Below, in pieces: positions 1 through 62,748 of a stretch of DNA of 64,000 nucleotides. The number at the start of each line of letters is the position of its first letter. Positions within the stretch are counted from its first letter, which is position 1. The position numbers and the translations under genes were made by a program. The notes below the pieces were generated by a model. That model was not told where the DNA came from. It ran no database searches and was given only the letters and a program-made list of their open reading frames with translations. Location: assembly GCA_030539495.1 (NCBI GenBank), contig JAUNRX010000004.1:8746-72745 (forward strand). Direction: 5' to 3'. Origin of the DNA: a bacterium. GTDB taxonomy: Bacteria > Bacillota > Clostridia > Lachnospirales > Lachnospiraceae.

Positions 1-1273
1 CACCACCTGTTGCACCAAAGATGACAGCAGCACCAGAAGACATACCTAATGGGTCATCGAAAGTTTCATCAGGAAGGGATCTAAAGTTAATTCCCTGTTG
101 ATCAATCATTTGTGCAAGTTCTCTTGTAGTAATTGCTATATCGACATCAGGAACACCTGCGGCGTTCTGATTATCTCTACCAATTTCATATTTCTTAGCA
201 GTACAAGGCATGATGCTGACCATTACAATCTTAGCAGGATCAATATTCATTTTCTCAGCATAGTAGGTCTTTGTGATTGCTCCAAACATCTGCTGTGGTG
301 ACTTACAGCTCGAAAGATTTTCTGTCATCTCAGGGAAGTAGTGTTCACAGTAATTAATCCATCCTGGAGAGCAGGAAGTGATAAGTGGAAGCGTTCCATT
401 ATTTTGGATACGATCGATTAACTCATGCGCTTCTTCCATTATTGTCAGATCAGCTGAGAAGTTAGTATCAAATACCTTGTCAAATCCTAGCAGGCGTAGA
501 GCAGCAACCATCTTGCCCTGTACATTTGTTCCAATTGGATAGTCAAAGCATTCTCCAAGTGCAGCACGAACAGCAGGTGCCGTTTGTACAAAAACAATCT
601 TATCAGGATCAGCAATGGCATCAAAGACTTGTTTGGTATAGTTCTTTTCTGCTAATGCACCAGTTGGACAGACAGCAATACATTGCCCACAGGAGACACA
701 GCTTGTTTCGCCTAATCCCATTTCAAAAGCACAGCCAATTTGTGTCTTAAAGCCTCTTTCATTGGCACCAATGACGCCTACGCTTTGTACCTTTTCACAA
801 ACAGCCACACATCTTCTGCATAAGATACACTTGGAATTATCACGATACATATGGGCGGCAGAGTGATCAATTTCAGAATGGATCTGCTCCCCTTTATAAT
901 AGTCTTCATTATCCACTTTTAAATCCTTGCATAGTTTTTGCAGTTCGCAGTCTCTGCTTCGTATACAGGATAGACAGGATTTATTATGATTGGATAATAA
1001 TAATTGCAGCGTTTTCTTTCGGGAGTCTAAGACTTTCTCTGTATTCGTATAGACTTCCATATTTTCAGCGACAGGATAAACACAAGAAGCCACCAGACTT
1101 CTCGCTCCTTTGACTTCTACCACACAAATTCTACAGGCACCAATTTCATTAATGTCCTTAAGATAACAGAGTGTGGGTATATTGATATGGGCCAAATGTG
1201 CTGCTTCTAAAATAGTGGAACCCTTAGGAGCTTCTACGGTCTGCCCATTTATTTTTAAAGTTACAGTCTCCAT
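1..1273 (-). CDS. hydA: [FeFe]-hydrogenase catalytic subunit of an electron-bifurcating (group A3-like) complex; 3' end beyond window start
   Basis: Manual translation from ATG at 1273 (RBS GGAGG): METVTLKINGQTVEAPKGSTILEAA..., [2Fe-2S] and 2x[4Fe-4S] motifs (CILCRRCVAVC, CVSCGQCIAVCP), H-cluster L1 TSCSPGW and L2 MPCTAKKYE; downstream of a NuoF-like gene. Not in the ORF track because it runs off the edge. Confidence 0.95.
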   Translation of the reverse strand, partial: METVTLKINGQTVEAPKGSTILEAAHLAHINIPTLCYLKDINEIGACRICVVEVKGARSLVASCVYPVAENMEVYTNTEKVLDSRKKTLQLLLSNHNKSCLSCIRSRDCELQKLCKDLKVDNEDYYKGEQIHSEIDHSAAHMYRDNSKCILCRRCVAVCEKVQSVGVIGANERGFKTQIGCAFEMGLGETSCVSCGQCIAVCPTGALAEKNYTKQVFDAIADPDKIVFVQTAPAVRAALGECFDYPIGTNVQGKMVAALRLLGFDKVFDTNFSADLTIMEEAHELIDRIQNNGTLPLITSCSPGWINYCEHYFPEMTENLSSCKSPQQMFGAITKTYYAEKMNIDPAKIVMVSIMPCTAKKYEIGRDNQNAAGVPDVDIAITTRELAQMIDQQGINFRSLPDETFDDPLGMSSGAAVIFGATGG

Positions 1274-1283
1274 AATAACCTCC

Positions 1284-3074
1284 TTATTTCTTTATGATGG
1301 CCCCAAATTTACATTTCTCCATACAAGCACCACATTTTAAACATTTCTCAGGATCAATTACATGAGGATGTTTCACTGTGCCGGTAATTGCACCAGCAGG
1401 GCATACCCTAGCGCACATTGTACAGCCTTTACATTTTTCAGGCTGGATTTCATAATGTAGCAATGCCTTGCAGACACCGGCAGGACATTTCTTATCAACC
1501 ACATGTGCAAGATACTCATCTTTGAAATAACGAAGGGTAGATAAAACAGGATTTGGAGCAGTCTGTCCTAATCCACAGAGAGAGTTTTCTTTAATGTAAT
1601 AACAAAGTTCCTCTAACTTATCTAAGTCTTCTAAAGTACCATTTCCTTTTGTGATCTTATCTAGCAGTTCAAGCAGACGTTTGGTTCCGATACGGCAAGG
1701 GGTGCATTTTCCACAAGATTCATCTACAGTAAATTGTAAAAAGAATTTTGCGATATCTACCATGCAGTTATCTTCATCCATTACGATCAGGCCGCCAGAA
1801 CCCATCATGGAGCCAATACTGATCAGATTATCATAGTCAATAGGAATATCAAAATGTTCTGCAGGAATGCATCCACCTGAAGGACCACCGGTCTGTGCTG
1901 CTTTAAATTTCTTACCATGAGGGATGCCGCCACCAATCTCTTCAATGACTTCTCGAAGCGTGGTTCCCATTGGAATTTCTACAAGGCCTGTATTATTAAT
2001 CTTTCCACCAAGAGCAAATACTTTGGTTCCTTTGGATTTTTCGGTTCCCATGGAGGCAAACCATTTTGGGCCATTTAAAATAATTTGAGGAATATTGGCA
2101 TAGGTCTCTACATTATTTAAAATGGTTGGTTCCTTAAATAAGCCTTTTTGTGCTGGAAATGGAGGTCTAGGTCTAGGCTCTCCACGTTTTCCTTCAATGG
2201 AAGTCATAAGAGCAGTCTCTTCTCCACATACAAAAGCACCGGCACCAAGCCGCAGTCCGATATCAAAATCAAAGCCAGAAGAGAAGATATCTTTTCCAAG
2301 TAATCCATATTCTCTTGCCTGATCGATGGCAATCTTAAGTCTCTTTACAGCGATAGGATATTCGGCACGAACATAGATATATCCTTGATTAGCACCGATG
2401 GCATATCCTGCAATGGCCATTGCCTCTAATACAACATGGGGATCACCTTCCAGGACGGAACGATCCATAAATGCTCCGGGATCTCCTTCATCAGCATTAC
2501 AGCAGACATATTTTTGATCGGAATCATTTCCTTTTGCCAATTTCCACTTGATTCCTGTTGGAAATCCACCACCACCACGGCCACGAAGTCCGCTATCAAT
2601 TAGAGTCTGTATTACTTCATCAGGCGTCATGGAAGTAACGACTTTTCCTAAAGCCTCATATCCGCCTGTTCCTATGTATTCTTCTATATTTTCAGGGTTA
2701 ATGACACCACAGTTACGTAGTGCGATACGATGTTGATTTTTGTAGAACTTGGTATCAGATAGAGATTTTACATCCCCACTATCTGTAACCGTTTCGTTAT
2801 ATAAAAGACGTTTTACGACACGGCCTTTTAATAAATGCTCTTCCACGATTTCAGGAATATCCTCTACTTTGACCATGGAGTAAAAAGACGCTTCCGGATA
2901 AACAATCATAATAGGACCTAATGCACATAATCCATGACATCCAGTCTGAACGACGCATATCTCTTTGCTTAGTCCCTGTTTTTCAATCTCTGCTTGTAAT
3001 GCTTTTATGATTTCACCGCTTCCAGAGGAAGTGCATCCGGTTCCACCACAAACTAAGACATGTGAACGATACAT
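1284..3074 (-). CDS. hydB: NuoF-like NADH/FMN-binding subunit of bifurcating hydrogenase
   Basis: GLRGRGGGGFP, CNADEGDPGAFMDR, GAGAFVCGEETAL, ESCGKCTPCRIG motifs, N-terminal thioredoxin-like [2Fe-2S] domain, C-terminal 2x[4Fe-4S]. Confidence 0.95.
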   Translation of the reverse strand: MYRSHVLVCGGTGCTSSGSGEIIKALQAEIEKQGLSKEICVVQTGCHGLCALGPIMIVYPEASFYSMVKVEDIPEIVEEHLLKGRVVKRLLYNETVTDSGDVKSLSDTKFYKNQHRIALRNCGVINPENIEEYIGTGGYEALGKVVTSMTPDEVIQTLIDSGLRGRGGGGFPTGIKWKLAKGNDSDQKYVCCNADEGDPGAFMDRSVLEGDPHVVLEAMAIAGYAIGANQGYIYVRAEYPIAVKRLKIAIDQAREYGLLGKDIFSSGFDFDIGLRLGAGAFVCGEETALMTSIEGKRGEPRPRPPFPAQKGLFKEPTILNNVETYANIPQIILNGPKWFASMGTEKSKGTKVFALGGKINNTGLVEIPMGTTLREVIEEIGGGIPHGKKFKAAQTGGPSGGCIPAEHFDIPIDYDNLISIGSMMGSGGLIVMDEDNCMVDIAKFFLQFTVDESCGKCTPCRIGTKRLLELLDKITKGNGTLEDLDKLEELCYYIKENSLCGLGQTAPNPVLSTLRYFKDEYLAHVVDKKCPAGVCKALLHYEIQPEKCKGCTMCARVCPAGAITGTVKHPHVIDPEKCLKCGACMEKCKFGAIIKK

Positions 3075-3087
3075 GGAAACTCCCCCT

Positions 3088-3462
3088 TTAAGATCCGAGT
3101 ACCTCGGAAATGGTGTATTCTTTTACAATCTGTCCACGAATTAGGTGCTGATCGACTACGACCAGTGCTTTTTCTGGAGTCATCTTTACGTAAGTAACTT
3201 TTTCTTTGCCTGGTTCCATAACTTCGACAATCGGTTCATATTGGCATAGACCAATACATCCAGTCTGTGTCACAGTTACATTATCAAGTCCTTTTTCCAA
3301 AACGGCATCGGAAAGAGTAGTGAGTACAGGCCTAGCGCCGCTCGCAATGCCACAGGTAGCCATACCAACGACAACCCGCGTTCCTGTATCATCTTCTGAT
3401 CTAAGACCAACTTGCCCCTGCATCTTCTCACGAATGGCCCTTAGTTCTTCTAGTGACTTCAT
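3088..3462 (-). CDS. hydD: Thioredoxin-like [2Fe-2S] ferredoxin subunit (HydD/HndB-like)
   Basis: MATCGIASGA and TGCIGLC motifs; position between hydC and hydB. Confidence 0.8.
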   Translation of the reverse strand: MKSLEELRAIREKMQGQVGLRSEDDTGTRVVVGMATCGIASGARPVLTTLSDAVLEKGLDNVTVTQTGCIGLCQYEPIVEVMEPGKEKVTYVKMTPEKALVVVDQHLIRGQIVKEYTISEVLGS

Positions 3463-3487
3463 AGAAAATACCTCCTATAATAATGTG

Positions 3488-4045
3488 TTATAGAATTGCT
3501 CCACCATCTACAGCTATTTTATTTTCAGATAAATATTCTTTAATATATGTAGAAACTTCCTTAGTATTTAATGGGATATCTTTAAGAATTGTTCGAAATG
3601 TCCTTGTATCTAACTCGAAGGAGCGATCATTATAAGTATAGATATAGTCAAAATCAACCGTTAGATTACAAGTAATAAGAGAGTGAATTGTAGAGGTAAT
3701 ATCTCCTAATGGCATTCTATCAATATGTGATAGAACAAAGGAGGCGTCTACTGTAGTCCCTTCCCCTACGGTAGAGCTGATATGAAAAGTTCCCCCAGTC
3801 GACTCGGACTGAAATTTAAAGAAAGGAACACCAAGACCAACTTTTCGTGTGGTTCGAGTTGTAAAGAAAGGATCGACCACAGCTTCTAGTTGTTCATTTG
3901 TCATACCATTACCATTATCTTTGATCTGTATCGTCAATAAATCCATTGGTGTGCTAATTGTTATATGTATTATAACGAGTGATGCACTGGCAGCAATGGA
4001 GTTGTTTGTTATGTCTAATACATTGAGAGATAACTCTGTCATCAT
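3488..4045 (-). CDS. Stand-alone histidine-kinase-like ATPase (HATPase_c) embedded in hyd operon
   Basis: N-box LDITNNSIAA, G1 DNGNGM, F-box DPFFTT, G2 GLGVPF; no sensor or dimerisation/His domain. Confidence 0.8.
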   Translation of the reverse strand: MMTELSLNVLDITNNSIAASASLVIIHITISTPMDLLTIQIKDNGNGMTNEQLEAVVDPFFTTRTTRKVGLGVPFFKFQSESTGGTFHISSTVGEGTTVDASFVLSHIDRMPLGDITSTIHSLITCNLTVDFDYIYTYNDRSFELDTRTFRTILKDIPLNTKEVSTYIKEYLSENKIAVDGGAIL

Positions 4046-4048
4046 AGC

Positions 4049-4543
4049 TTAAGCGTATTTTGCAAGTATTTCGTCAATGTCGTCTACTGTAAGTCGGCCA
4101 TATACATCGTCATTTACAGTAAGAACAGGTGCGAGACCACAAGCACCAATGCAACGGCATGCATCAAGAGAAAACTTACCATCTGGTGTACATTCTCCAC
4201 CTTGAATGCCAAGCTTTTCAGTGAGTTGATTGTAGATATCACCGGAGCCTTTAACATAACAAGCAGTACCTAAGCACACAGATATCTGATATTTTCCTTT
4301 TGGATTAAGGGAAAATTGAGAATAAAAAGTGACAACGCCATAGATTTTCTCTAATGGAATATCCATTTCATTAGAAATAATGGTTTGTACTTCGATAGGA
4401 AGATATCCGTAGATGTCTTGGGCTTGTTGAAGTACTGGCATAAGTGCACCTTTATCATCTTTATAAGCTTCGATGATCTGCATTAATTCGGCTTCTTGTT
4501 CTTTTGTTCCGTTAAATGGAACCGTGGATGTTTTAGAACCCAT
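4049..4543 (-). CDS. hydC: NuoE-like [2Fe-2S] subunit of bifurcating hydrogenase
   Basis: VCLGTAC...CRCIGACGLAPV motif, YGVVTFYSQF. Confidence 0.93.
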   Translation of the reverse strand: MGSKTSTVPFNGTKEQEAELMQIIEAYKDDKGALMPVLQQAQDIYGYLPIEVQTIISNEMDIPLEKIYGVVTFYSQFSLNPKGKYQISVCLGTACYVKGSGDIYNQLTEKLGIQGGECTPDGKFSLDACRCIGACGLAPVLTVNDDVYGRLTVDDIDEILAKYA

Positions 4544-4734
4544 TCGTTTACCTCCTTGATTTAATAATCTATAAACACATGAAAGAAATTTCCTTCATAG
4601 TATTTCGTGTTTGTCCTTGATTTAACATACAATATTATAGCATAGCACCTTGTAAAAATCCACAAGTATATGCACATTTAACAATAAATGGAAATGGCAA
4701 AATATATAAAATTTTCTGTTATGAGATTGAGAAT

Positions 4735-4752
4735 TTGTTAATTATTTAACTA
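4735..4752. promoter_or_regulatory. Putative Rex (NADH/NAD+ sensor) operator
   Basis: TTGTTAATTATTTAACTA, 1 mismatch to clostridial Rex consensus TTGTTAANNNNTTAACAA, in the divergent gap between the two hydrogenase operons. Confidence 0.65.
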
Positions 4753-4911
4753 GATATTAACAGTAGTTACATTTAATTGGAATGTATTGAAAAAAATAGG
4801 GTGTAATGTTATACTTTTTGCATAATGTAAAGGTTTTACAAATACATATTAATACAATAAAGTGTATAAAAATGCAACCCATTATTTTAGAAAAAATGAG
4901 GAGGAGCTGTA

Positions 4912-5262
4912 GTGACTGTTTATCAAGTATGTAAAGCATTAGATGCGAAAGTTGTCTGTGGTGAAACACGTATGGATAAAGATGTTCACAATGCATGTGG
5001 TTCTGATATGTTGAGTGATGTGCTTGCGTTTGTAAAAGACCAGTCTGTATTGTTAACTGGCCTTTGTAACCCCCAGGTAATCCGTACTGCTGAAATGATG
5101 GACATTATATGTATCGTATTTGTACGTGGAAAAGAACCTGACCATGCAATGGTACAATTAGCAAATACACTTGGGATTACATTGTTAACTACTAGTCATA
5201 GAATGTTCAGCGCATGCGGACTCTTATATGAGAAGGGTCTAAGAGGAGGTGCATCTTATTGA
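4912..5262 (+). CDS. DRTGG-domain protein
   Basis: GSDMLSDVLA / VLLTGL / IVFVRGK pattern; GTG start with GGAGG RBS. Confidence 0.8.
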   Translation: MTVYQVCKALDAKVVCGETRMDKDVHNACGSDMLSDVLAFVKDQSVLLTGLCNPQVIRTAEMMDIICIVFVRGKEPDHAMVQLANTLGITLLTTSHRMFSACGLLYEKGLRGGASY

Positions 5263-5684
5263 GTGCCTCTATGCAGCTACATTATGTAGTTTCTTCTGAG
5301 GACTTTACACGGGCAGGCGAGGCATCCAGTGATGTGAAGAGCAAGCTGAAGAAGCTTGGATTTTCACCGGATGTTGTGCGAAGGGTGGCCATCGTGATGT
5401 ATGAAGGTGAGATCAATATGGTAATTCATGCGAATGGCGGCGAGATAGAGGTTGTAATATCTGAGGAAGAAGTAATTATGAAGTTAGAGGACCACGGTCC
5501 AGGAATCGCAGATGTAGAACAGGCCATGCAAGAAGGATTTTCTACAGCACCTGACAATATACGGACATTAGGATTTGGAGCCGGTATGGGGCTTCCTAAT
5601 ATGAAGAAGTATGCGGACGTTATGGAGATACAGACTAAGATTAATGTGGGAACAACAGTACTTATGAAAGTAGCTGTGAGCTAG
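5259..5684 (+). CDS. Anti-sigma-factor-like Ser/Thr kinase (RsbT/SpoIIAB-type HATPase_c)
   Basis: YEGEINMVIHA, DHGPGI, GFST, GAGMGLPNMKK motifs. Confidence 0.85.
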   Translation: MSASMQLHYVVSSEDFTRAGEASSDVKSKLKKLGFSPDVVRRVAIVMYEGEINMVIHANGGEIEVVISEEEVIMKLEDHGPGIADVEQAMQEGFSTAPDNIRTLGFGAGMGLPNMKKYADVMEIQTKINVGTTVLMKVAVS

Positions 5685-5710
5685 ATTATTTTGGTTTGAA
5701 AGGAGAACAT

Positions 5711-6991
5711 ATGGATAAGTTCTATAATTCAGTTCGCCTAGATGCTGATAAGTGTATGGGATGTATTAACTGTATTAAACGGTGCCCAACACAGGCAATC
5801 CGCGTACGTAATGGGAAGGCGGTAATTACAAGGGAATTCTGTATTGATTGTGGAGAATGCATTCGTATATGTCCGCATCATGCAAAGCTTGCTACTTATG
5901 ATAGTATGGATATTCTGAACAAATACAAGTACACAATTGCATTGCCGGCACCAAGCCTGTATGCACAATTTAATAATTTAGATGATATTAATATTATTCT
6001 TACTGCACTTTTGAAGCTGGGATTTGATGAAGTTTATGAGGTGAGTGGTGCAGCAGAGATTGTATCAGAGCTATCTCGAAAATATGTAGCAGAGCATAAG
6101 GACCTATGGCCAATTATCAGTACAGCATGTCCATCGGTGGTACGTCTGATCAGGGTACGTTTTCCAAACCTGATTGAGCATTTACTTCCAATCAGTGCAC
6201 CAGTGGATCTTGCAGCATCCATTGTAAAGAAGAATGTAATGGAAAAGACGAAGCTGCCTCGAAGTGATATTGGCATTATCTTTATTTCACCATGTCCTGC
6301 AAAAGTGACTGCCAAGTATTCGCCTCTTGGAATTGATAAGAGTGATATTGATGCCGTACTTGCAATTAAAGAGGTATATCCGAAGTTACTTCCTCTTATG
6401 AAAGAGGTAAGAAATGATGTAGAGGAGCTATCAATTGCAGGGAAGATCGGTATCTCCTGGGGAAGTACAGGTGGTGAGGCAGCAGGTCTTTTAACGGATA
6501 ACTATCTTGCAGCGGATGGGATTGAGAATGTAATCCGTGTATTAGAAGATATAGAGGATCAGAAGTTTACCAATTTAGAGTTTATTGAATTGAATGCCTG
6601 TAATGGAGGCTGTGTAGGGGGCGTGCTAACTGTTGAGAATCCATTTGTAGCGAAGGTTAAGCTTAAGAGGTTAAGAAAGTATATGCCAGTTGCATGTGTG
6701 CGACTGAATTCAAGACCTCCGGAAAATGCATATTGGAATACAAGCGTTCAATATGAGCCTGTCTTTAAGTTGGGAGAGAACTTGAAGGAAAGCATTATGT
6801 TGGGAGCAGAAGTGGAAGAAATCTTAAGCAGGCTTCCTGGACTTGATTGTGGGTCTTGTGGGGCACCAACGTGTCGTGCATTAGCAGAAGATGTGGTTCG
6901 GGGTGTAGCCAAGGAAAAGGATTGTATCCATATCTTACGAGAGTATATTCATAAGATATCCAATGAAATAAATAGGCTTGACCAAGAATAG
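5711..6991 (+). CDS. Atypical [FeFe]-hydrogenase-fold protein (2x[4Fe-4S] + H-domain + C-terminal FeS domain), probably regulatory
   Basis: CMGCINCIKRCP and CIDCGECIRICP; variant H-cluster motifs STACP, SPCPAK, ELNACNGGCVGG; C-terminal CGSCGAPTC. ATG at 5711 preferred over TTG 5696 (RBS AGGAG). Confidence 0.8.
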   Translation: MDKFYNSVRLDADKCMGCINCIKRCPTQAIRVRNGKAVITREFCIDCGECIRICPHHAKLATYDSMDILNKYKYTIALPAPSLYAQFNNLDDINIILTALLKLGFDEVYEVSGAAEIVSELSRKYVAEHKDLWPIISTACPSVVRLIRVRFPNLIEHLLPISAPVDLAASIVKKNVMEKTKLPRSDIGIIFISPCPAKVTAKYSPLGIDKSDIDAVLAIKEVYPKLLPLMKEVRNDVEELSIAGKIGISWGSTGGEAAGLLTDNYLAADGIENVIRVLEDIEDQKFTNLEFIELNACNGGCVGGVLTVENPFVAKVKLKRLRKYMPVACVRLNSRPPENAYWNTSVQYEPVFKLGENLKESIMLGAEVEEILSRLPGLDCGSCGAPTCRALAEDVVRGVAKEKDCIHILREYIHKISNEINRLDQE

Positions 6992-7002
6992 GGGGAGATA
7001 GG

Positions 7003-7338
7003 TTGACTGTTAAGGAGTTAATTGAGAGTGGTAAGTTTCATAGTATTAATGAACAAGGCGATTGTACCAAAGAAATTACCGTACCTTTTTGTTGTGATTT
7101 ATTAAGCATCGCTATGAGTAAGGCGCCTGCCGGAGCAGCCTGGGTTACTGTTATGGGAAATGTGAATACGATTGCAGTTGCATCACTTACAGAGGTTTCC
7201 GTATTGATCCTTGCACAAGGGATGAAGTTAGATGAGTTTGCTTTAAAGAAAGCAAGGAGTCAGAATGTGATAGTATTAGCTACGGCTATGCCGATTTTCG
7301 AGACTGCTTACTGGATTTATAATCAAATGCATGAATAG
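7003..7338 (+). CDS. DRTGG-like domain protein
   Basis: CCDLLSIAMSKA...WVTVMGNVNTIAVA pattern typical of hydrogenase-associated DRTGG-like proteins. Confidence 0.65.
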   Translation: MTVKELIESGKFHSINEQGDCTKEITVPFCCDLLSIAMSKAPAGAAWVTVMGNVNTIAVASLTEVSVLILAQGMKLDEFALKKARSQNVIVLATAMPIFETAYWIYNQMHE

Positions 7339-8053
7339 ATTATCATACGACTTACATATCCATTCCTGTTTGTCTCCTTGTGCAGATGAGGATATGACAC
7401 CGGCAAATATAGTAGGAATGGCATCTATTAAGGAATTAGATGTAATTGCAGTGACAGATCATAATAGTTGTAGAAATTGCAGAGCAGTAATCGAGTGGGC
7501 AAAACAGTATGATATTATGGCATTACCTGGAATGGAACTGACGACAGAGGAAGAGGTGCATGTATTGTGTTTATTTGAGACTTTGGAGAGTGCATTGCAG
7601 TTTGACCGGTATGTTTATGAAAGGCTAGGCCATATTAGGAACAGTGCCGTTATCTTTGGAGAACAGTATCTGTATAATGAAAAGGATGAAAGGATTGGAG
7701 AAGAAGAGCGCTTGCTCATTCAGAGTACATCCATCCATTTTGATGAAGTCTATGATCTTATGCGGCAGTTTGACGGAGTAATGGTTCCTGCGCATATTGA
7801 TAAGAGTGCAAATAGCTTATTATATAATCTTGGATTTATTCCAGAGGGAAGTAAGTTTCAGTGTGTGGAAATTGCAAATCTACAGAGAAAAAAACAGTTA
7901 TGTGAAGAACAGGAGTACTTACAGGGGATAAGAGTTATTTCAGACTCAGATGCACATTATCTAACAGATATCAATGAACCGAAGAACTGGATAGAAGTTG
8001 AGAAGCCAACCATTTTATCCGTAATTAACTGGTTAAGAAATACTAGGAATTGA
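7331..8053 (+). CDS. PHP-family metal-dependent phosphoesterase
   Basis: DLHIHS, VTDHN, PAHID, SDSDAH metal-binding motifs. Confidence 0.88.
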   Translation: MNRLSYDLHIHSCLSPCADEDMTPANIVGMASIKELDVIAVTDHNSCRNCRAVIEWAKQYDIMALPGMELTTEEEVHVLCLFETLESALQFDRYVYERLGHIRNSAVIFGEQYLYNEKDERIGEEERLLIQSTSIHFDEVYDLMRQFDGVMVPAHIDKSANSLLYNLGFIPEGSKFQCVEIANLQRKKQLCEEQEYLQGIRVISDSDAHYLTDINEPKNWIEVEKPTILSVINWLRNTRN

Positions 8054-15740: not shown

Positions 15741-17135
15741 ATGGAATTAGTAACGATACGCGACCTATATCGTAATAAAGAAACTTATGTTGGAAAGACT
15801 ATCTCCATCGGAGGTTGGGTAAGAAGTAATAGAGATCAAAAAGCATTTGGCTTTATCGTAGTAAACGATGGCAGCTTCTTTGAGACTTTACAAGTAGTTT
15901 ATAGTGCAGATAAACTTGAAAACTTCGCTGAAATTGCAAAATTAAACATTGGATCTGCAGTAGTTGTAAAAGGACAATTAGTTGCAACTCCTAATGCAAA
16001 ACAACCATTTGAAATTCAAGCAGAAGAAGTATTAGTAGAAGGTATGTCTACAAGTGATTACCCACTACAAAAGAAACGTCATACATTAGAATACTTACGT
16101 ACAATCACTCATTTACGTCCTAGAACAAATACGTTCCAAGCAGTATTCAGAGTACGTTCTTTAATCGCTTATGCAATTCATCAATATTTCCAAGAAAGAA
16201 ACTTTGTATATGTTCATACTCCATTAATCACAGGTAGTGACTGTGAAGGTGCTGGTGAAATGTTCAGAGTAACAACTCTTGATCTTAATAATGTACCAAA
16301 AACAGAAGAAGGTGCCGTTGATGTTAAACAAGACTTCTTCGGTAAAGAAACAAACCTTACAGTAAGTGGTCAGTTAAATGGTGAAACATATGCTTGTGCA
16401 TTCCGTAACATCTATACATTCGGACCTACATTTAGAGCAGAAAACTCTAATACAACTCGTCATGCAGCAGAATTCTGGATGATCGAGCCTGAAATCGCAT
16501 TTGCTGATTTACAAGATGACATGATTTTAGCAGAGGGAATGCTTAAATATGTAATTAAGTACGTACTTGAAAATGCTCCTGAAGAAATGAACTTCTTCAA
16601 CCAATTCGTTGACAAAGGATTACTTGAACGTCTTAATAACGTAGCTGCAGCTGATTTCGGACGTGTTACTTACACTGAAGCAATCGAAATCCTTGAAAAA
16701 GTAAACGATCGTTTCGATTACAAAGTAAGCTGGGGATGTGACCTTCAAACAGAACATGAACGTTACTTAACAGAAGAAGTATTCAAGAAACCTGTTTTCG
16801 TAACAGATTACCCTAAAGATATTAAAGCATTCTACATGAAGATGAATGATGATAATAAAACAGTTGCTGCAATGGATTTATTAGTTCCTGGAATTGGTGA
16901 AATCATCGGCGGTAGCCAAAGAGAAGATGATTACGACAAGTTAGTTGCTCGTATGAATGAATTAGGATTAAAAGAAGAAGATTACGATTTCTATCTTGAT
17001 CTTCGTAAATACGGTTCCGTTCGCCATGCTGGTTTCGGTCTTGGTTTCGAACGTTGTGTAATGTACCTTACTGGTATGGGTAACATCAGAGACGTTATTC
17101 CATTCCCTCGTACTGTTAACAACTGCGAACTTTAA
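15741..17135 (+). CDS. asnS: Asparagine--tRNA ligase
   Basis: OB-fold N-terminus, [42 protein letters not shown]; highly expressed codon usage. Confidence 0.97.
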
Positions 17136-17262: not shown

Positions 17263-17339
17263 GGATTCCAAAGGACACCGATGGTTTCCATACCTTCCCC
17301 CAAGCAGGGCGCTGTCAGTGAGGTAAGCGGACGTTGGAG

Positions 17340-17531
17340 AAAAGAACGGAGCACCTGAAGGTTCTCCGGACCACTCCAAGTTGGCTGACGGAAGGTTATG
17401 AAACGTTATGACAGGCCTAAAGTACGGGCCTTTCATAACGAGCTTTGATGTTTGGAAAAGAACGGAGCACCTAAAAGGTTCTCCGGACCACTCCAAGTTG
17501 AATGACAGTAGGTTGTGAAGCATTATGTACA
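17340..17531. repeat. Two-copy direct repeat (about 75 bp unit, 44-45 bp near-identical core)
   Basis: AAAAGAACGGAGCACCTG-AAGGTTCTCCGGACCACTCCAAGTTG at 17340 and AAAAGAACGGAGCACCTAAAAGGTTCTCCGGACCACTCCAAGTTG at 17456, with similarity continuing about 30 nt further. Confidence 0.9.
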
Positions 17532-17573: not shown

Positions 17574-18068
17574 TTAATTTGATTTAAAGATGACTTTTTT
17601 GTAAGGTAATAATGCAAGTAATAGCATTGTTCCTAGAATTCCTGCAGAGATTACTTCTCCGGCACCTACTGTTGCCATTAGGTATGGAATTGAATCTTTT
17701 ACATCCACGTATGCTGCTTTTAGTACGAATGGTACGATAATAGTGTTCGCTAAAATTGGTGGTAATACCACTAGATATTTATAGCGACGTAAGTAGTAAC
17801 TTCCTAAGGCTCCAAGTAGGGTTGCTAGTGTTCCGAAGATAATATCTAGGGCAGCACATCCTGTTAAGAAATTGCTTAAGAAGCAGCCAACTGCTAAGCC
17901 TGGGATAGCGGCAGGTGTAAAGAATGGTAAGATTGTTAATGCTTCGGATACTCTTACTTGAATAGCACCATTTGCTAAGCCGAATAAGTTAGAAAGGTGC
18001 GTTAAGATTACGTACAGTGCTGCGATCATGGCAGCTTGTGTTAAGTATAAAACACGTTTGTTTGTCAT
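17574..18068 (-). CDS. queT: QueT-family queuosine precursor transporter (ECF S-component)
   Basis: AAMIAALYVILT, IQVRVSEALTILPFF, GCFLSN motifs; preQ1 riboswitch directly upstream. Confidence 0.88.
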   Translation of the reverse strand: MTNKRVLYLTQAAMIAALYVILTHLSNLFGLANGAIQVRVSEALTILPFFTPAAIPGLAVGCFLSNFLTGCAALDIIFGTLATLLGALGSYYLRRYKYLVVLPPILANTIIVPFVLKAAYVDVKDSIPYLMATVGAGEVISAGILGTMLLLALLPYKKVIFKSN

Positions 18069-18082
18069 ATAAAATTCACTCC

Positions 18083-18124
18083 TATAGTTTTGTTTTACGA
18101 GTGGAAGGTTGCGAACACTCGAAC
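18083..18124 (-). ncRNA. preQ1 class I riboswitch (translational)
   Basis: Minus strand CGAGTG-TTCGCAACCTTC-CACTCG-TAAAACAAAACTA immediately followed by SD TAGGAG; P1 stem, UUCG..ACC loop and A-rich tail match the preQ1-I consensus. Confidence 0.9.
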
Positions 18125-18130
18125 TTAATG

Positions 18131-18506: not shown

Positions 18507-18631
18507 TGATAAGAAAAGCTGCCAGACTTATATAAGTTTGACAGCTTTTCTTCCTATTATAATAGGAGCTTATTTTGACGTTTTTTTACGTTATAGGAAA
18601 TTACATCACAATCCACTATAAAGTAAAAAAA

Positions 18632-18705
18632 GCACCTTGAGAAATGGTGCACGATACACATTCAACTGAAAGGAGTATGTCGCTAACGCGATTAGCTTCG
18701 GCGCG
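18632..18705 (+). repeat. Dispersed repeat family 1, copy C
   Basis: GCACC/GGTGC hairpin, core CACATTCAACTGAAAGGA (18657-18674), then GTATGTCGCTAACGCGATTAGCTTCGGCGCG, 25/31 identical to 62627-62657. Confidence 0.8.
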
Positions 18706-18936
18706 GGCAAAGTATCTTCGACCTGAAGGTTTTGTCCCTTCATGAATGTGGGCAGGGAAGTTGAAGTGTCGAAGACACTTTGTTCTAGGATTTCTTCTTA
18801 TGACGTTTTGTGCTTAAAAACGTCATAATTCTGCCTAGTGTTAAGGCCCTCTTTATGATATACTTTTATATAATAATAGCTTGTCAACAGGATGCGATGG
18901 AAATCGGAGATAGAAACGTGTAGGAGGGTACACAGG

Positions 18937-31918: not shown

Positions 31919-31959
31919 AAAGACTGTTTGTAGCAATATGCTGCAGACGGTCTTTTTTA
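31919..31959 (+). terminator. Intrinsic terminator of the atp operon
   Basis: AAAGACTGTTTGTAGCA / TGCTGCAGACGGTCTTTTTT. Confidence 0.75.
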
Positions 31960-32086
31960 GTACATAGGAAACTTCTCTCGAATACACTTTGTTTTACTAA
32001 AAATCTACTGAGAGTATTTATCTTGTTAAAATGGTATAAATTGGTATAATAGAAACAAAAACAAATAAGCAGTACAGGAGGCATTT

Positions 32087-39681: not shown

Positions 39682-39723
39682 AAGGAAGCATAAGAGAGCA
39701 TAATTGCTTATGCTTCCTTTTTT
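39682..39723 (+). terminator. Intrinsic terminator after aminopeptidase
   Basis: AAGGAAGCATAAG / CTTATGCTTCCTT plus T-tract. Confidence 0.8.
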
Positions 39724-39806
39724 AATTAATAGGGGATTTCGAGAAAAATCCCCTATTAATTAAAAAACGCCCTAAAAGAAGGGCTAGAATACACACTCAG
39801 CTGAAA
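39718..39806 (+). repeat. Dispersed repeat family 1, copy A
   Basis: TAATAGGGGATTT-CGAGAA-AAATCCCCTATTA hairpin, GCCCT/AGGGC hairpin, core CACACTCAGCTGAAA; strongly similar to 60675-60768. Confidence 0.85.
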
Positions 39807-60643: not shown

Positions 60644-60681
60644 AGAGGATGTCCCCCATAAAGGAGACGTCCTCTTTTTTT
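60644..60681 (+). terminator. Intrinsic terminator after hup
   Basis: AGAGGATGTC / GACGTCCTCT plus T-tract. Confidence 0.75.
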
Positions 60682-60768
60682 TATTAATAGGAAAATTCTC
60701 TCGAAATCCCCTATTAATTAAAAAAGATCTAAAAAGAAGGGTGTAGAATGCACACTCAGCTGAAAGGA
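60675..60768 (+). repeat. Dispersed repeat family 1, copy B
   Basis: TAATAGGAAAATT-CTCTCG-AAATCCCCTATTAATTAAAAAA...AAGGG..TAGAATGCACACTCAGCTGAAAGGA. Confidence 0.85.
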
Positions 60769-60923
60769 AGCTACATACCTGCCGCCTACAGTTTACCTTA
60801 TAACTGCAATTAGAAAGGGCCATACTATTTATGGAGGCAGTAGATCTCAGGGTTTTGTATTGTGGAAAGATATAGTATAATCATTGTATAAATCAGAAGA
60901 ATATATAGAAATGGAGAGTTCGA

Positions 60924-62352: not shown

Positions 62353-62381
62353 TTGACAAGCTGACTTTTGTCGGATATAAT
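62353..62381 (+). promoter_or_regulatory. Consensus sigma-A promoter of tRNA gene
   Basis: TTGACA-N17-TATAAT. Confidence 0.9.
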
Positions 62382-62395
62382 TGATTTTGTTGTCT

Positions 62396-62469
62396 GGCGG
62401 AGTAGCTCAGTTGGCTAGAGCACACGGTTCATACCCGTGGTGTCATGGGTTCAAATCCCTTCTCCGCTA
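62396..62469 (+). tRNA. tRNA-Met (CAT), elongator type; CCA not encoded
   Basis: Cloverleaf: acceptor GGCGGAG/CTCCGCT, D-arm GCTC/GAGC, anticodon stem CACGG/CCGTG with TTCATAC loop, T-loop TTCAAAT; same position before spoIIE as B. subtilis tRNA-Met. Confidence 0.95.
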
Positions 62470-62522
62470 TTTATCATAAAGAAGGTTTTGTGATTAATCT
62501 TATAACCAATAGAAACGTAATC

Positions 62523-62554
62523 AAAAGGCTCGACCGTCGGTCGAGTCTTTTTTT
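62523..62554 (+). terminator. Intrinsic terminator after tRNA
   Basis: AAAAGGCTCGACC / GGTCGAGTCTTTT plus T-tract. Confidence 0.8.
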
Positions 62555-62748
62555 GTTATGTGGATTTGCTTTGCAAATCCACATAACAAAAACGCTCCGC
62601 TAAGGATGCGCACTCACCTGACAGGAAGATGTCGCTGACGCGACCAGGTTCGGCGCGAAAAAAGAGTCTTTGTATCAAAGACTCTTTTTATTATAAAGAT
62701 TTGCTTTGCAATTCCACATAACAAAAATGCTCCGCTAAGGCAGATGTC
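62550..62748 (+). repeat. Dispersed repeat family 1, copy D, with an internally deleted second copy
   Basis: Perfect 20 bp hairpin (TTTTTGTTATGTGGATTTGC-TTT-GCAAATCCACATAACAAAAA), CGCTCCGCTAAGGATGCG, core CGCACTCACCTGACAGGA, ATGTCGCTGACGCGACCAGGTTCGGCGCG, another hairpin, then GATTTGCTTTGCAATTCCACATAACAAAAATGCTCCGCTAAGG again at 62698. Confidence 0.85.

Follow-up and report, generated by a model that had tools for sequence, protein, structure and literature searches.

Positions 62550-62748 of the DNA analyzed here lie downstream of a tRNA gene in a region with the gene order mfd-spoVT-mazG-hup-S4-yabP-yabQ-divIC-tRNA-spoIIE, a gene set which indicates that the source is a member of the spore-forming Clostridia. 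The whole stretch analyzed, hereafter the window, is 64,000 nucleotides long with a G+C content of 37%. The 62550-62748 stretch belongs, as a single copy, to a genuine family of multi-hairpin DNA repeats that seems not to have been described before. The window holds six copies or remnants of this family: two complete, two truncated at the 3' end, one variant and one reduced to its first hairpin (H1). The pattern CRCAYTCANCTGAMA matches four times in the window, always on the + strand, at 18657, 39792, 60751 and 62609, compared with 0.24 matches expected, and none of 100 shuffles gave four, so that chance resemblance is refuted as the explanation of the four cores. A first-pass annotation of this DNA had pointed to four co-oriented cores, and the pattern search and shuffles bear out both their positions and their strand. 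With its label A read as the copy at 39792, B as that at 60751, C as that at 18657 and D as that at 62609, all details given there are consistent.

Elements of this family are 126 to 200 nt long, and a full copy comprises four hairpin modules. Read 5' to 3' on the + strand, the order is host T-tract, H1, A-run, H2, a central domain (P0/P1-bulge-P2), GGCGCG, H4 and a T-run. H1 is a long palindrome with arms YATAGGAAA and TTTCCTATR, and the A-run of 4 to 7 nt that follows pairs with the host T-tract and so extends the H1 stem. The small hairpin H2 reads CGCTCC..GGATGCG in most genomes, with GCACC/GGTGC or GCCCT/AGGGC also occurring in the window. The central domain runs from a short GC helix (P0) through P1, a 10-nt purine bulge (AAAGGAAGAU), the P2 hairpin (GUCGC-URAC-GCGAC) and the P1 return strand to GGCGCG; the bulge is invariant, and the P1 that encloses bulge and P2 is variable and covarying. 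The stretch identical across genera is AGGAAGATGTCGCTGACGCGAC; 22 nt around a Shine-Dalgarno-like AAGGA and an AUG do not vary between genera. H4 has two forms, one short with an AGAAT/ATTCT base and one long and branched, and together with the T-run it is terminator-like. Hairpins are present at both ends (H1 and H4). Terminal inverted repeats are absent when the first 30 nt of the Cuneatibacter consensus are compared with the reverse complement of its last 32 nt, the best end-to-end match being a gapped alignment of 21 columns between hairpin interiors, not termini. The first-pass annotation had taken an 18-nt core as the conserved heart of the element; this core corresponds to the 5' strand of P0/P1 plus the purine bulge, and its CTGAMA strand differs between genomes. 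The copies and the adjoining tRNA features are as follows.

62353-62381: promoter of the tRNA gene, with the TTGACA-17-TATAAT consensus.
62396-62469, + strand: tRNA gene (Rfam RF00005, 63.9 bits); the anticodon loop is UUCAUAC, so the anticodon is CAU.
62523-62554, + strand: intrinsic terminator of the tRNA gene, with a stem of 13 bp and, at 62548-62554, a run of seven T (terminator scan, fold).
62555-62689, + strand: copy D1, complete, 135 nt, delimited by its sequence and by the 135-nt offset of the flanking repeat.
62555-62587, 62588-62592 and 62593-62610: H1, A-run and H2 of D1.
62608-62611 with 62653-62656: P0 of D1 (GCGC).
62616-62620 with 62645-62649: P1 of D1 (ACCTG with CAGGT).
62621-62630 and 62631-62644: purine bulge of D1 (ACAGGAAGAT) and P2 (GTCGC-TGAC-GCGAC).
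62652-62657 and 62658-62689: GGCGCG of D1 and its H4 with A6 and T5.
62690-62740, + strand: copy D2, older and 3'-truncated, with a degenerate H1, A-run and the 5' half of H2.
18588-18785, + strand: the 18657 copy, complete and of the "A type", whose H4 is long and branched; delimited by sequence and fold, with an approximate right end.
18581-18587, 18588-18624, 18625-18631 and 18632-18650: T-run, degenerate H1, A-run and H2 (GCACC/GGTGC) of the 18657 copy.
18664-18697, 18700-18705 and 18706-18785: P1/bulge/P2, GGCGCG and long H4 of the 18657 copy.
39724-39806, + strand: the 39792 copy, 3'-truncated, delimited by sequence and ending at the CTGAAA of the P1 5' strand.
39724-39761, 39762-39767 and 39769-39784: H1, A-run and H2 (GCCCT/AGGGC) of the 39792 copy.
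60683-60849, + strand: the 60751 copy, variant or chimeric, with H1, A-run, degenerate H2, P1 5' strand and bulge (AAAGGAAG).
31959-32004, + strand: decayed remnant consisting of H1 only, directly after a terminator T-run at 31953-31958.

Much of what the first-pass annotation had read from the letters holds. The small hairpins are present at 39792, 18657 and 62609 (here CGCTCC/GGATGCG) and degraded at 60751. The 18657 and 62609 copies share the continuation ATGTCGCTRACGCGA..TTCGGCGCG (66 nt, 76% identity by blastn), and one palindrome is common to the 39792 and 60751 copies (AATTAATAGGGGATTT..AAATCCCCTATTAATT; 93 nt, 81% by blastn), that of the 62609 copy being different. The 39792 copy stands directly 3' of the terminator T-run (39718-39723) of an upstream aminopeptidase-like gene. 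The 60751 copy follows the hup terminator T-run (60675-60682) in the same way and has an unrelated 3' part of about 80 nt in place of P2. The remnant at 31959-32004 matches H1 of the 60751 copy at 77% (blastn). A covariance model built on P1-bulge-P2 finds two matches in the window, at 62604-62662 in D1 (66.6 bits) and at 18652-18710 in the 18657 copy (54.2 bits), and with all filters off it finds none at the 39792 or 60751 copies.

Copy D had also been described as followed by an internally deleted duplicate. A duplicate does exist (62679-62740 repeats 62544-62605 at 87% identity by blastn), but it is an older 3'-truncated copy made of H1 and half of H2. Its counterpart, the homologous remnant aacaaaaaacgctttcctaagaatgcgc, is present in the relative L038. 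The T-run of the tRNA terminator is the insertion target of D1 and pairs with the A-run of the element. In relatives L038 and L035 this terminator and its T-run are found, but D1 is not. Because L038 keeps only the D2-homologous remnant at the tRNA site, D1 inserted later than D2, upstream of it and at the same T-run. Separately, the tRNA-spoIIE spacer of L038 (6069-6176) contains its own 27-nt direct repeat, TACGCGAGCAACGAGCCAAAGTCATGC, which occurs twice around a terminator-like hairpin and suggests a different small insertion at the same hotspot.

Base pairing is maintained where the sequence changes. At least six complementary versions of P1 occur (CGCAAATGC/GCATTTGCG, CTGCGGCGG/CCGCCGCAG, GCGCG/CGCGC, GCAGTGG/CCACTGC, GCGCA/TGCGC and ACCTG/CAGGT), and P2 changes from GUCGC/GCGAC to GGUUGC/GCAACC in L104 and L105. 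The inner five P1 pairs show 5 to 11 double changes each in a model-guided alignment, with a covariation score of 0.343 compared with at most 0.093 for slid partners and no equal score among 500 shuffles; such an alignment favors structure, but the slid control and the raw list of P1 versions are independent of that bias. H1 has compensatory versions within the Cuneatibacter genome (CATAGG/CCTATG and GATAGG/CCTATC), where H4 varies freely at three loop bases and keeps its stem constant. As single-stranded DNA, 62520-62700 folds at -53.7 kcal/mol (z = -10.6). One-step departures from pairing in P1 and P2 are all G.T on the + strand, most Cuneatibacter H1 stems carry an A.C mismatch on the + strand, and of 26 copies compared, 20 fold better in H2-P1-P2-H4 on the reverse strand. 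The covariation that the first-pass annotation had named as a check is seen in the complementary P1 versions and in a covariation score above both controls.

Insertion is precise and in one orientation; it occurs 3' of T-rich DNA, which in most cases is an intrinsic terminator's U-tract. A T-tract lies to the left of nearly all copies, and among 24 copies examined, about 20 have H1 abutting a host terminator, whose GC-rich hairpin is followed by a T-run. The nearest upstream reading frame is co-oriented with the element and ends 110 to 190 nt before P2, and three copies stand 3' of tRNA genes (window D, L069, L085). Copies are tandem (window D1/D2, L102, L098) or single, never inverted. Orientation appears to follow the upstream gene rather than replication, with positive GC skew on the element strand in 18 of 23 loci. 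A C in the host tract faces a G of the A-run in two Cuneatibacter copies (L084, L097) and not in L095, which is suggestive of pairing-based target choice in too few cases. Internal deletions that keep the first 4 to 6 nt occur in L068 and L091, and L075 and L087 have no 5' modules. The modules look more like parts lost by deletion than like the exchangeable ones first proposed.

The clearest junctions come from a copy of 126 nt at 961-1086 of L095, which lies in frame and stop-free inside an AAA-ATPase/PDDEXK_9 gene. The 93%-identical gene P0002 (L106) and all homologues at 66 to 70% are without exactly the corresponding 42 residues. The filled site reads AACTTTCTT, then the element (GTGTCAC to GGATTCTTTTTT), then AACAAAAAAG, and the empty site in L106 reads AATTTTCTT joined directly to GATAAAAAGG. 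TTTCTT is thus followed by 126 nt ending in TTTTTT and then AAC when filled, compared with TTTCTT followed by GAT when empty. There is therefore no target duplication, the left T-rich tract belongs to the host and the right T-run is carried by the element. Gene calls for L095 list, at 70-1909, an "intact" protein of 612 residues (P0001) which includes the 42 element-derived residues (VSQGISSCDTKNAPRDRTAAERKMSLTRPAAGGESCKAGFFF). Orthologous loci in relatives, located through an identical HU protein, also differ: relatives L035-L044 (78 to 83% nucleotide identity) have no 60751 copy between hup and the S4 gene, and in a closer relative (about 92% identity) from the metagenome run X1, 91 other letters replace 60682-60849. 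The suggested polymorphic sites are therefore found at 60751, at the tRNA gene and in the L095/L106 pair.

Beyond the window, 49 contigs of X1 match 62588-62658 at 80% or more, with loose ends that resemble other window copies, and the summed word depth over this interval is about 600, compared with 5 to 50 on either side. Many X1 contigs, like L102, have the long-H4 type of the 18657 copy. When the conserved middle, AGGANNATGTCGCTRACGCGA, was used for scanning, true members came up at eight metagenome loci. Exact core matches mark at least 14 loci in the species-representative genome of Cuneatibacter sp. NSJ-177, and eight other Lachnospiraceae-type assemblies, derived from the gut of human, rabbit and roe deer, contribute ten further loci. 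On the family loci, the covariance model finds one copy each, with 51 to 77 bits in about 30 loci from other genomes. Metagenome and genome scans hence bear out the first-pass view of a dispersed, modular, structure-conserving and non-autonomous repeat with many further copies, and the family is specific to Lachnospiraceae-type Clostridia. Matches in three Bradyrhizobium, one Terricaulis and one Saprospiraceae sequence are attributable to chance, being GC-rich and without flanking modules. A genome-collection scan with CTGAMAGGANNATGTCGCTRACGCGA, which includes the core first described, returned nothing because CTGAMA is the variable P1 strand. The 18-nt core alone matches 34 unrelated viral contigs, mostly at a stop codon followed by a ribosome-binding site. 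The plasmid collection gave no match, and a lone viral pattern match, in GC-rich sequence unlike the element, is likewise due to chance. A further variant occurs in L104 and L105 (GenBank MT836815 and MT837746), unverified human-faecal "Bacteriophage sp." records; a metK-like bacterial gene lies beside the repeat in L105, and the records may be bacterial DNA rather than phage. A divergent short member at L093 3896-3975 (bulge CAGCAGAAACAU, P2 GUCGC-AA-GCGAC, no 3' T-run) lies between what resembles, by eye, a T-box-type leader terminator and a cysE-like gene, which a terminator-competent copy at this position would silence.

The first-pass annotation had allowed that the element might overlap with motifs already described in Clostridiales. 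Rfam 15, whose models include the Clostridiales, Lachnospiraceae and HEARO motifs, group I and II introns and riboswitches, gave no family match: in the window the tRNA alone passes the gathering threshold, permissive scans returned generic hairpins far below it, and nothing passes on L081, L086 or L076. No paper in the library searched contains the invariant 17-mer, whether in DNA or RNA letters and whichever strand is read, and keyword searches returned general REP, MITE and IS200 papers alone.

Several other features of the window lie apart from the element. The + strand is the G-rich leading strand, and all window copies are on it. GC skew is about 0 in the first 8 kb (1-8000) and then about +0.2, genes lie on the minus strand at 1284-4543 but on the plus strand beyond 5696, and the start of the window is probably close to a replication origin. 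Two tandem direct repeats of about 117 nt at 17339-17527 (+ strand; identity 87% over a 53-nt block and 95% over a 21-nt block) sit in the gap where an asnS-like gene at 15741-17135 and a minus-strand QueT-like membrane gene at 17574-18068 converge, and they have no Rfam match. The PreQ1 riboswitch model scores weakly at 18078-18126 (minus strand; 22.4 bits, below the gathering score of 39), immediately upstream of the QueT-like transporter gene, a position that would suit a real preQ1-I aptamer. In the divergent gap upstream of the 18657 copy, a 42-nt palindrome at 18511-18552 (AAGAAAAGCTGCCAGACTTAT / ATAAGTTTGACAGCTTTTCTT, 90% complementary, flanked by A- and T-rich runs) has the look of a bidirectional terminator.

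We regard it as very probable that the family is real, structured, mobile and non-autonomous. As the mover, we tentatively suggest an IS200/IS605-type HUH mechanism. A single DNA strand would be moved by "peel-and-paste" through an HUH (Y1) transposase supplied in trans, with both cleavages 3' of a T-tract, that of the host on the left and that of the element on the right. The target would be recognized by base pairing of the T-tract with the A-run of the element. The T-run of an inserted element can be targeted again, giving tandem copies. Copies later decay by deletion, and some supply the upstream gene with its 3' end or its terminator. In IS608, insertion occurs 3' of TTAC, which is kept in the left flank, the right end has its own cleavage motif and the target is recognized because it pairs with a part of the element adjacent to the left hairpin; specificity becomes sharper when the 3' extension of that hairpin is engineered to pair with DNA upstream of the target (PMC5934647). 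The natural pairing of T-tract and A-run across H1 has the same geometry. Taken as a whole, a non-autonomous mobile DNA element with HUH-type mobilization in trans as its likeliest mechanism is the explanation toward which we lean.

A number of observations weigh against that explanation. The window contains no transposase, as the first-pass annotation had noted and a motif scan bears out, and crude motif regexes for Y1 and reverse transcriptase found none in 283 kb of loci; no autonomous element with the 21-nt core appeared in the genome, metagenome and viral scans. The end hairpins of IS200/IS605 elements are alike, whereas H1, H2, P2 and H4 are not clearly so. The most conserved segment is internal and largely unpaired, a part that an HUH model does not need. 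Only one filled/empty pair (L095/L106) is precise to the nucleotide, the proportion of loci with positive skew is no more than the expected gene-strand bias, and the signals for the folding strand conflict between wobble counts and two-strand energies. An unlikely alternative is that nucleic-acid pairing homes the element to the ends of transcription units and that the mover is not a recognizable relative of known transposases encoded in cis. The A-run, and perhaps the purine bulge (A-T, G-C and G.T with any T/C tract), would read the T-tract, and a mover protein would take hold of the element at its invariant 22-nt P2/bulge. The facing C and G in L084 and L097 are a hint in this direction. 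If true, gut Firmicutes would harbor non-autonomous elements of a new, guide-bearing kind.

The element could instead be an RNA module that serves the host in the 3' untranslated region, as a stabilizer, a terminator or a decoy that exposes the AAGGA/AUG bulge to a protein or the ribosome, its mobility being incidental and its copies selected. Every stem covaries, variation among Cuneatibacter copies is concentrated in loops, the 22 nt around AAGGA and AUG are invariant across genera and H4 with the T-run resembles a terminator. A copy of the L075 type (without H1/H2, directly after the stop codon) takes the place of the gene's own terminator and is continuous with the upstream coding sequence in mouse-gut metatranscriptome contigs, which are without strand information and may include DNA carry-over. 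We nevertheless consider this account improbable: no sigma-70-like promoter lies on the + strand of 62552-62690 (copy D), the L081 copy has no RNA contigs although its upstream gene is covered, a functional host terminator precedes most copies, orthologous sites differ in whether the element is present, one copy is inside a coding gene (L095), neighboring genes have no common theme and the reverse strand folds at least as well. An independent structured noncoding RNA gene, as once proposed, would lack a promoter of its own, and the sole RNA evidence, from contigs without strand information, is read-through from an upstream gene. A riboswitch or leader was rejected, the downstream genes being unrelated and the copies behind terminators, as was a coding mini-gene from the invariant AUG, whose products share MSLTR alone, forced by conserved nucleotides. 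That frame runs for 18 to 100 residues in copies where it stops within intergenic DNA and reads on into a host gene in two, and its changes track base pairing, not codons.

Two other routes of mobility come into question. In a retro-mobile, SINE-like element, a reverse transcriptase (a group II intron protein or a different one) would copy an RNA ending in a U-run, with priming at the A-run where this faces the genomic T-tract. This suits T-tracts at both junctions, a target at the end of terminated transcripts and copies without 5' modules (L075, L087), and class C group II introns likewise home behind terminators; a bulge with a Shine-Dalgarno sequence and AUG beside a hairpin also recalls the DIVa protein-binding site of group II introns. 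A retro-mobile origin seems very unlikely given that neither duplication nor deletion nor untemplated letters mark the exact junction pair, that truncations occur at both ends alongside several internal deletions (L068, L091), and that there is no ribozyme domain or Rfam intron match, no promoter and, in motif scans of the window and loci, no reverse-transcriptase gene. Quite unlikely, too, is a passenger of another duplication-free recombinase, such as an IS110-type DEDD enzyme with a bridge-like RNA, an IS607-type serine recombinase or a tyrosine recombinase acting on folded DNA (attC-like). The missing duplication and inverted terminal repeats, the keeping of structure rather than sequence in several stems and a TT dinucleotide at both junctions speak for it. 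The right flanks, however, share no sequence, the two-sided target pairing of IS110 is not seen, bridge RNAs have two two-sided internal loops where the central domain here has a one-sided bulge, attC R/L boxes are absent and no such recombinase lies nearby, though the scans covered Y1 and reverse-transcriptase motifs only. Group II intron fragments, bridge RNAs, integron attC sites and rolling-circle single-strand origins, compared by description and with Rfam, do not fit the anatomy. To a chance likeness of ordinary terminators and AT-rich palindromes, with no real family behind it, we give next to no credence. Every copy abuts a terminator, intergenic hairpins are common and the 18-nt core matches unrelated phage sequences, but the shuffles, alignments of more than 100 nt between copies, the covariance scores in other genomes and the 22 nt identical across genera all stand against it.

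To our knowledge, small structured repeats (REP, BOX, Correia) are well studied in Proteobacteria and streptococci and hardly charted in the Clostridia that dominate the gut. The family supplies an annotation model (sequence, structure and exact ends) for recurrent misassembly, false small open reading frames and "intact" genes that bear 42 extra residues. It also provides a natural case of insertion at terminator T-tracts with complementarity between element and target, resembling engineered IS608 targeting, and a ready set of natural terminator or 3' untranslated region modules, any effect of which on neighboring genes could be measured. An enzyme that recognizes the invariant 22-nt hairpin and bulge would decide between an ordinary IS200/IS605 satellite and something new, and interest would be higher if this partner proved not to be an ordinary TnpA.

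Among known systems, IS200 has a large hairpin at its very left end followed by a structured region with a ribosome-binding-site-like sequence and AUG, an arrangement that the element shares. Like IS200/IS605 ends and palindrome-associated transposable elements (PATEs), the element has no inverted terminal repeats, no target duplication and hairpins at both ends, and it inserts strand-specifically 3' of a short left-flank target with a similar motif at the right end. As in IS608, the target is complementary to the element next to the left hairpin (PMC5934647). Unlike IS200/IS605, it has no cognate TnpA or autonomous copy found, its end hairpins differ from each other, its target is a T-tract of 5 to 8 nt instead of a defined tetra- or pentanucleotide and it has an extra invariant P1-bulge-P2 domain. 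The REP/BIME (REPIN) repeats of RAYT systems, to which the first-pass annotation had likened it, are similarly extragenic, hairpin-forming, multi-copy, often just 3' of genes and presumably mobilized by an HUH enzyme in trans. In the strict sense the likeness fails, since REPs are single GTAG/CGTC-tagged palindromes of 20 to 40 nt, typically in inverted pairs, whereas this unit from Clostridia has 126 to 200 nt, four different hairpins in a fixed order and a single orientation.

The pneumococcal BOX (A-B-C), RUP and SPRITE repeats are also modular or terminator-like intergenic repeats of Firmicutes with stable folds and no protein, mobilized in trans or by obscure means, and some are transcribed with neighboring genes. 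BOX and RUP have terminal inverted repeats, however, and RUP makes a TA duplication. We know of none among BOX, RUP and SPRITE that abuts terminator T-tracts precisely, and, comparing from description, we see no sequence relationship. Rickettsia palindromic elements (RPE) are hairpin repeats of about 100 to 150 nt that can sit in frame in genes, as the L095 copy does; here only one copy is in a gene and insertion behind terminators is the rule, and there is no relation in taxa or in sequence. The target is shared with class C group II introns, which insert in sense orientation just after the hairpin and T-tract of intrinsic terminators, but the element lacks ribozyme domains, a reverse transcriptase and GUGYG...AY ends and is ten times smaller. 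A classical MITE, a miniature inverted-repeat element dependent on a DDE transposase, has terminal inverted repeats and a fixed-length target duplication, neither of which is found. The element thus fails the defining tests of a REP, a classical MITE, an Rfam family, a coding gene and an intron. By comparison, it would appear to work most like gene-less derivatives of IS200/IS605, with a lifestyle that resembles those of REP/BIME, BOX/SPRITE and RPE.

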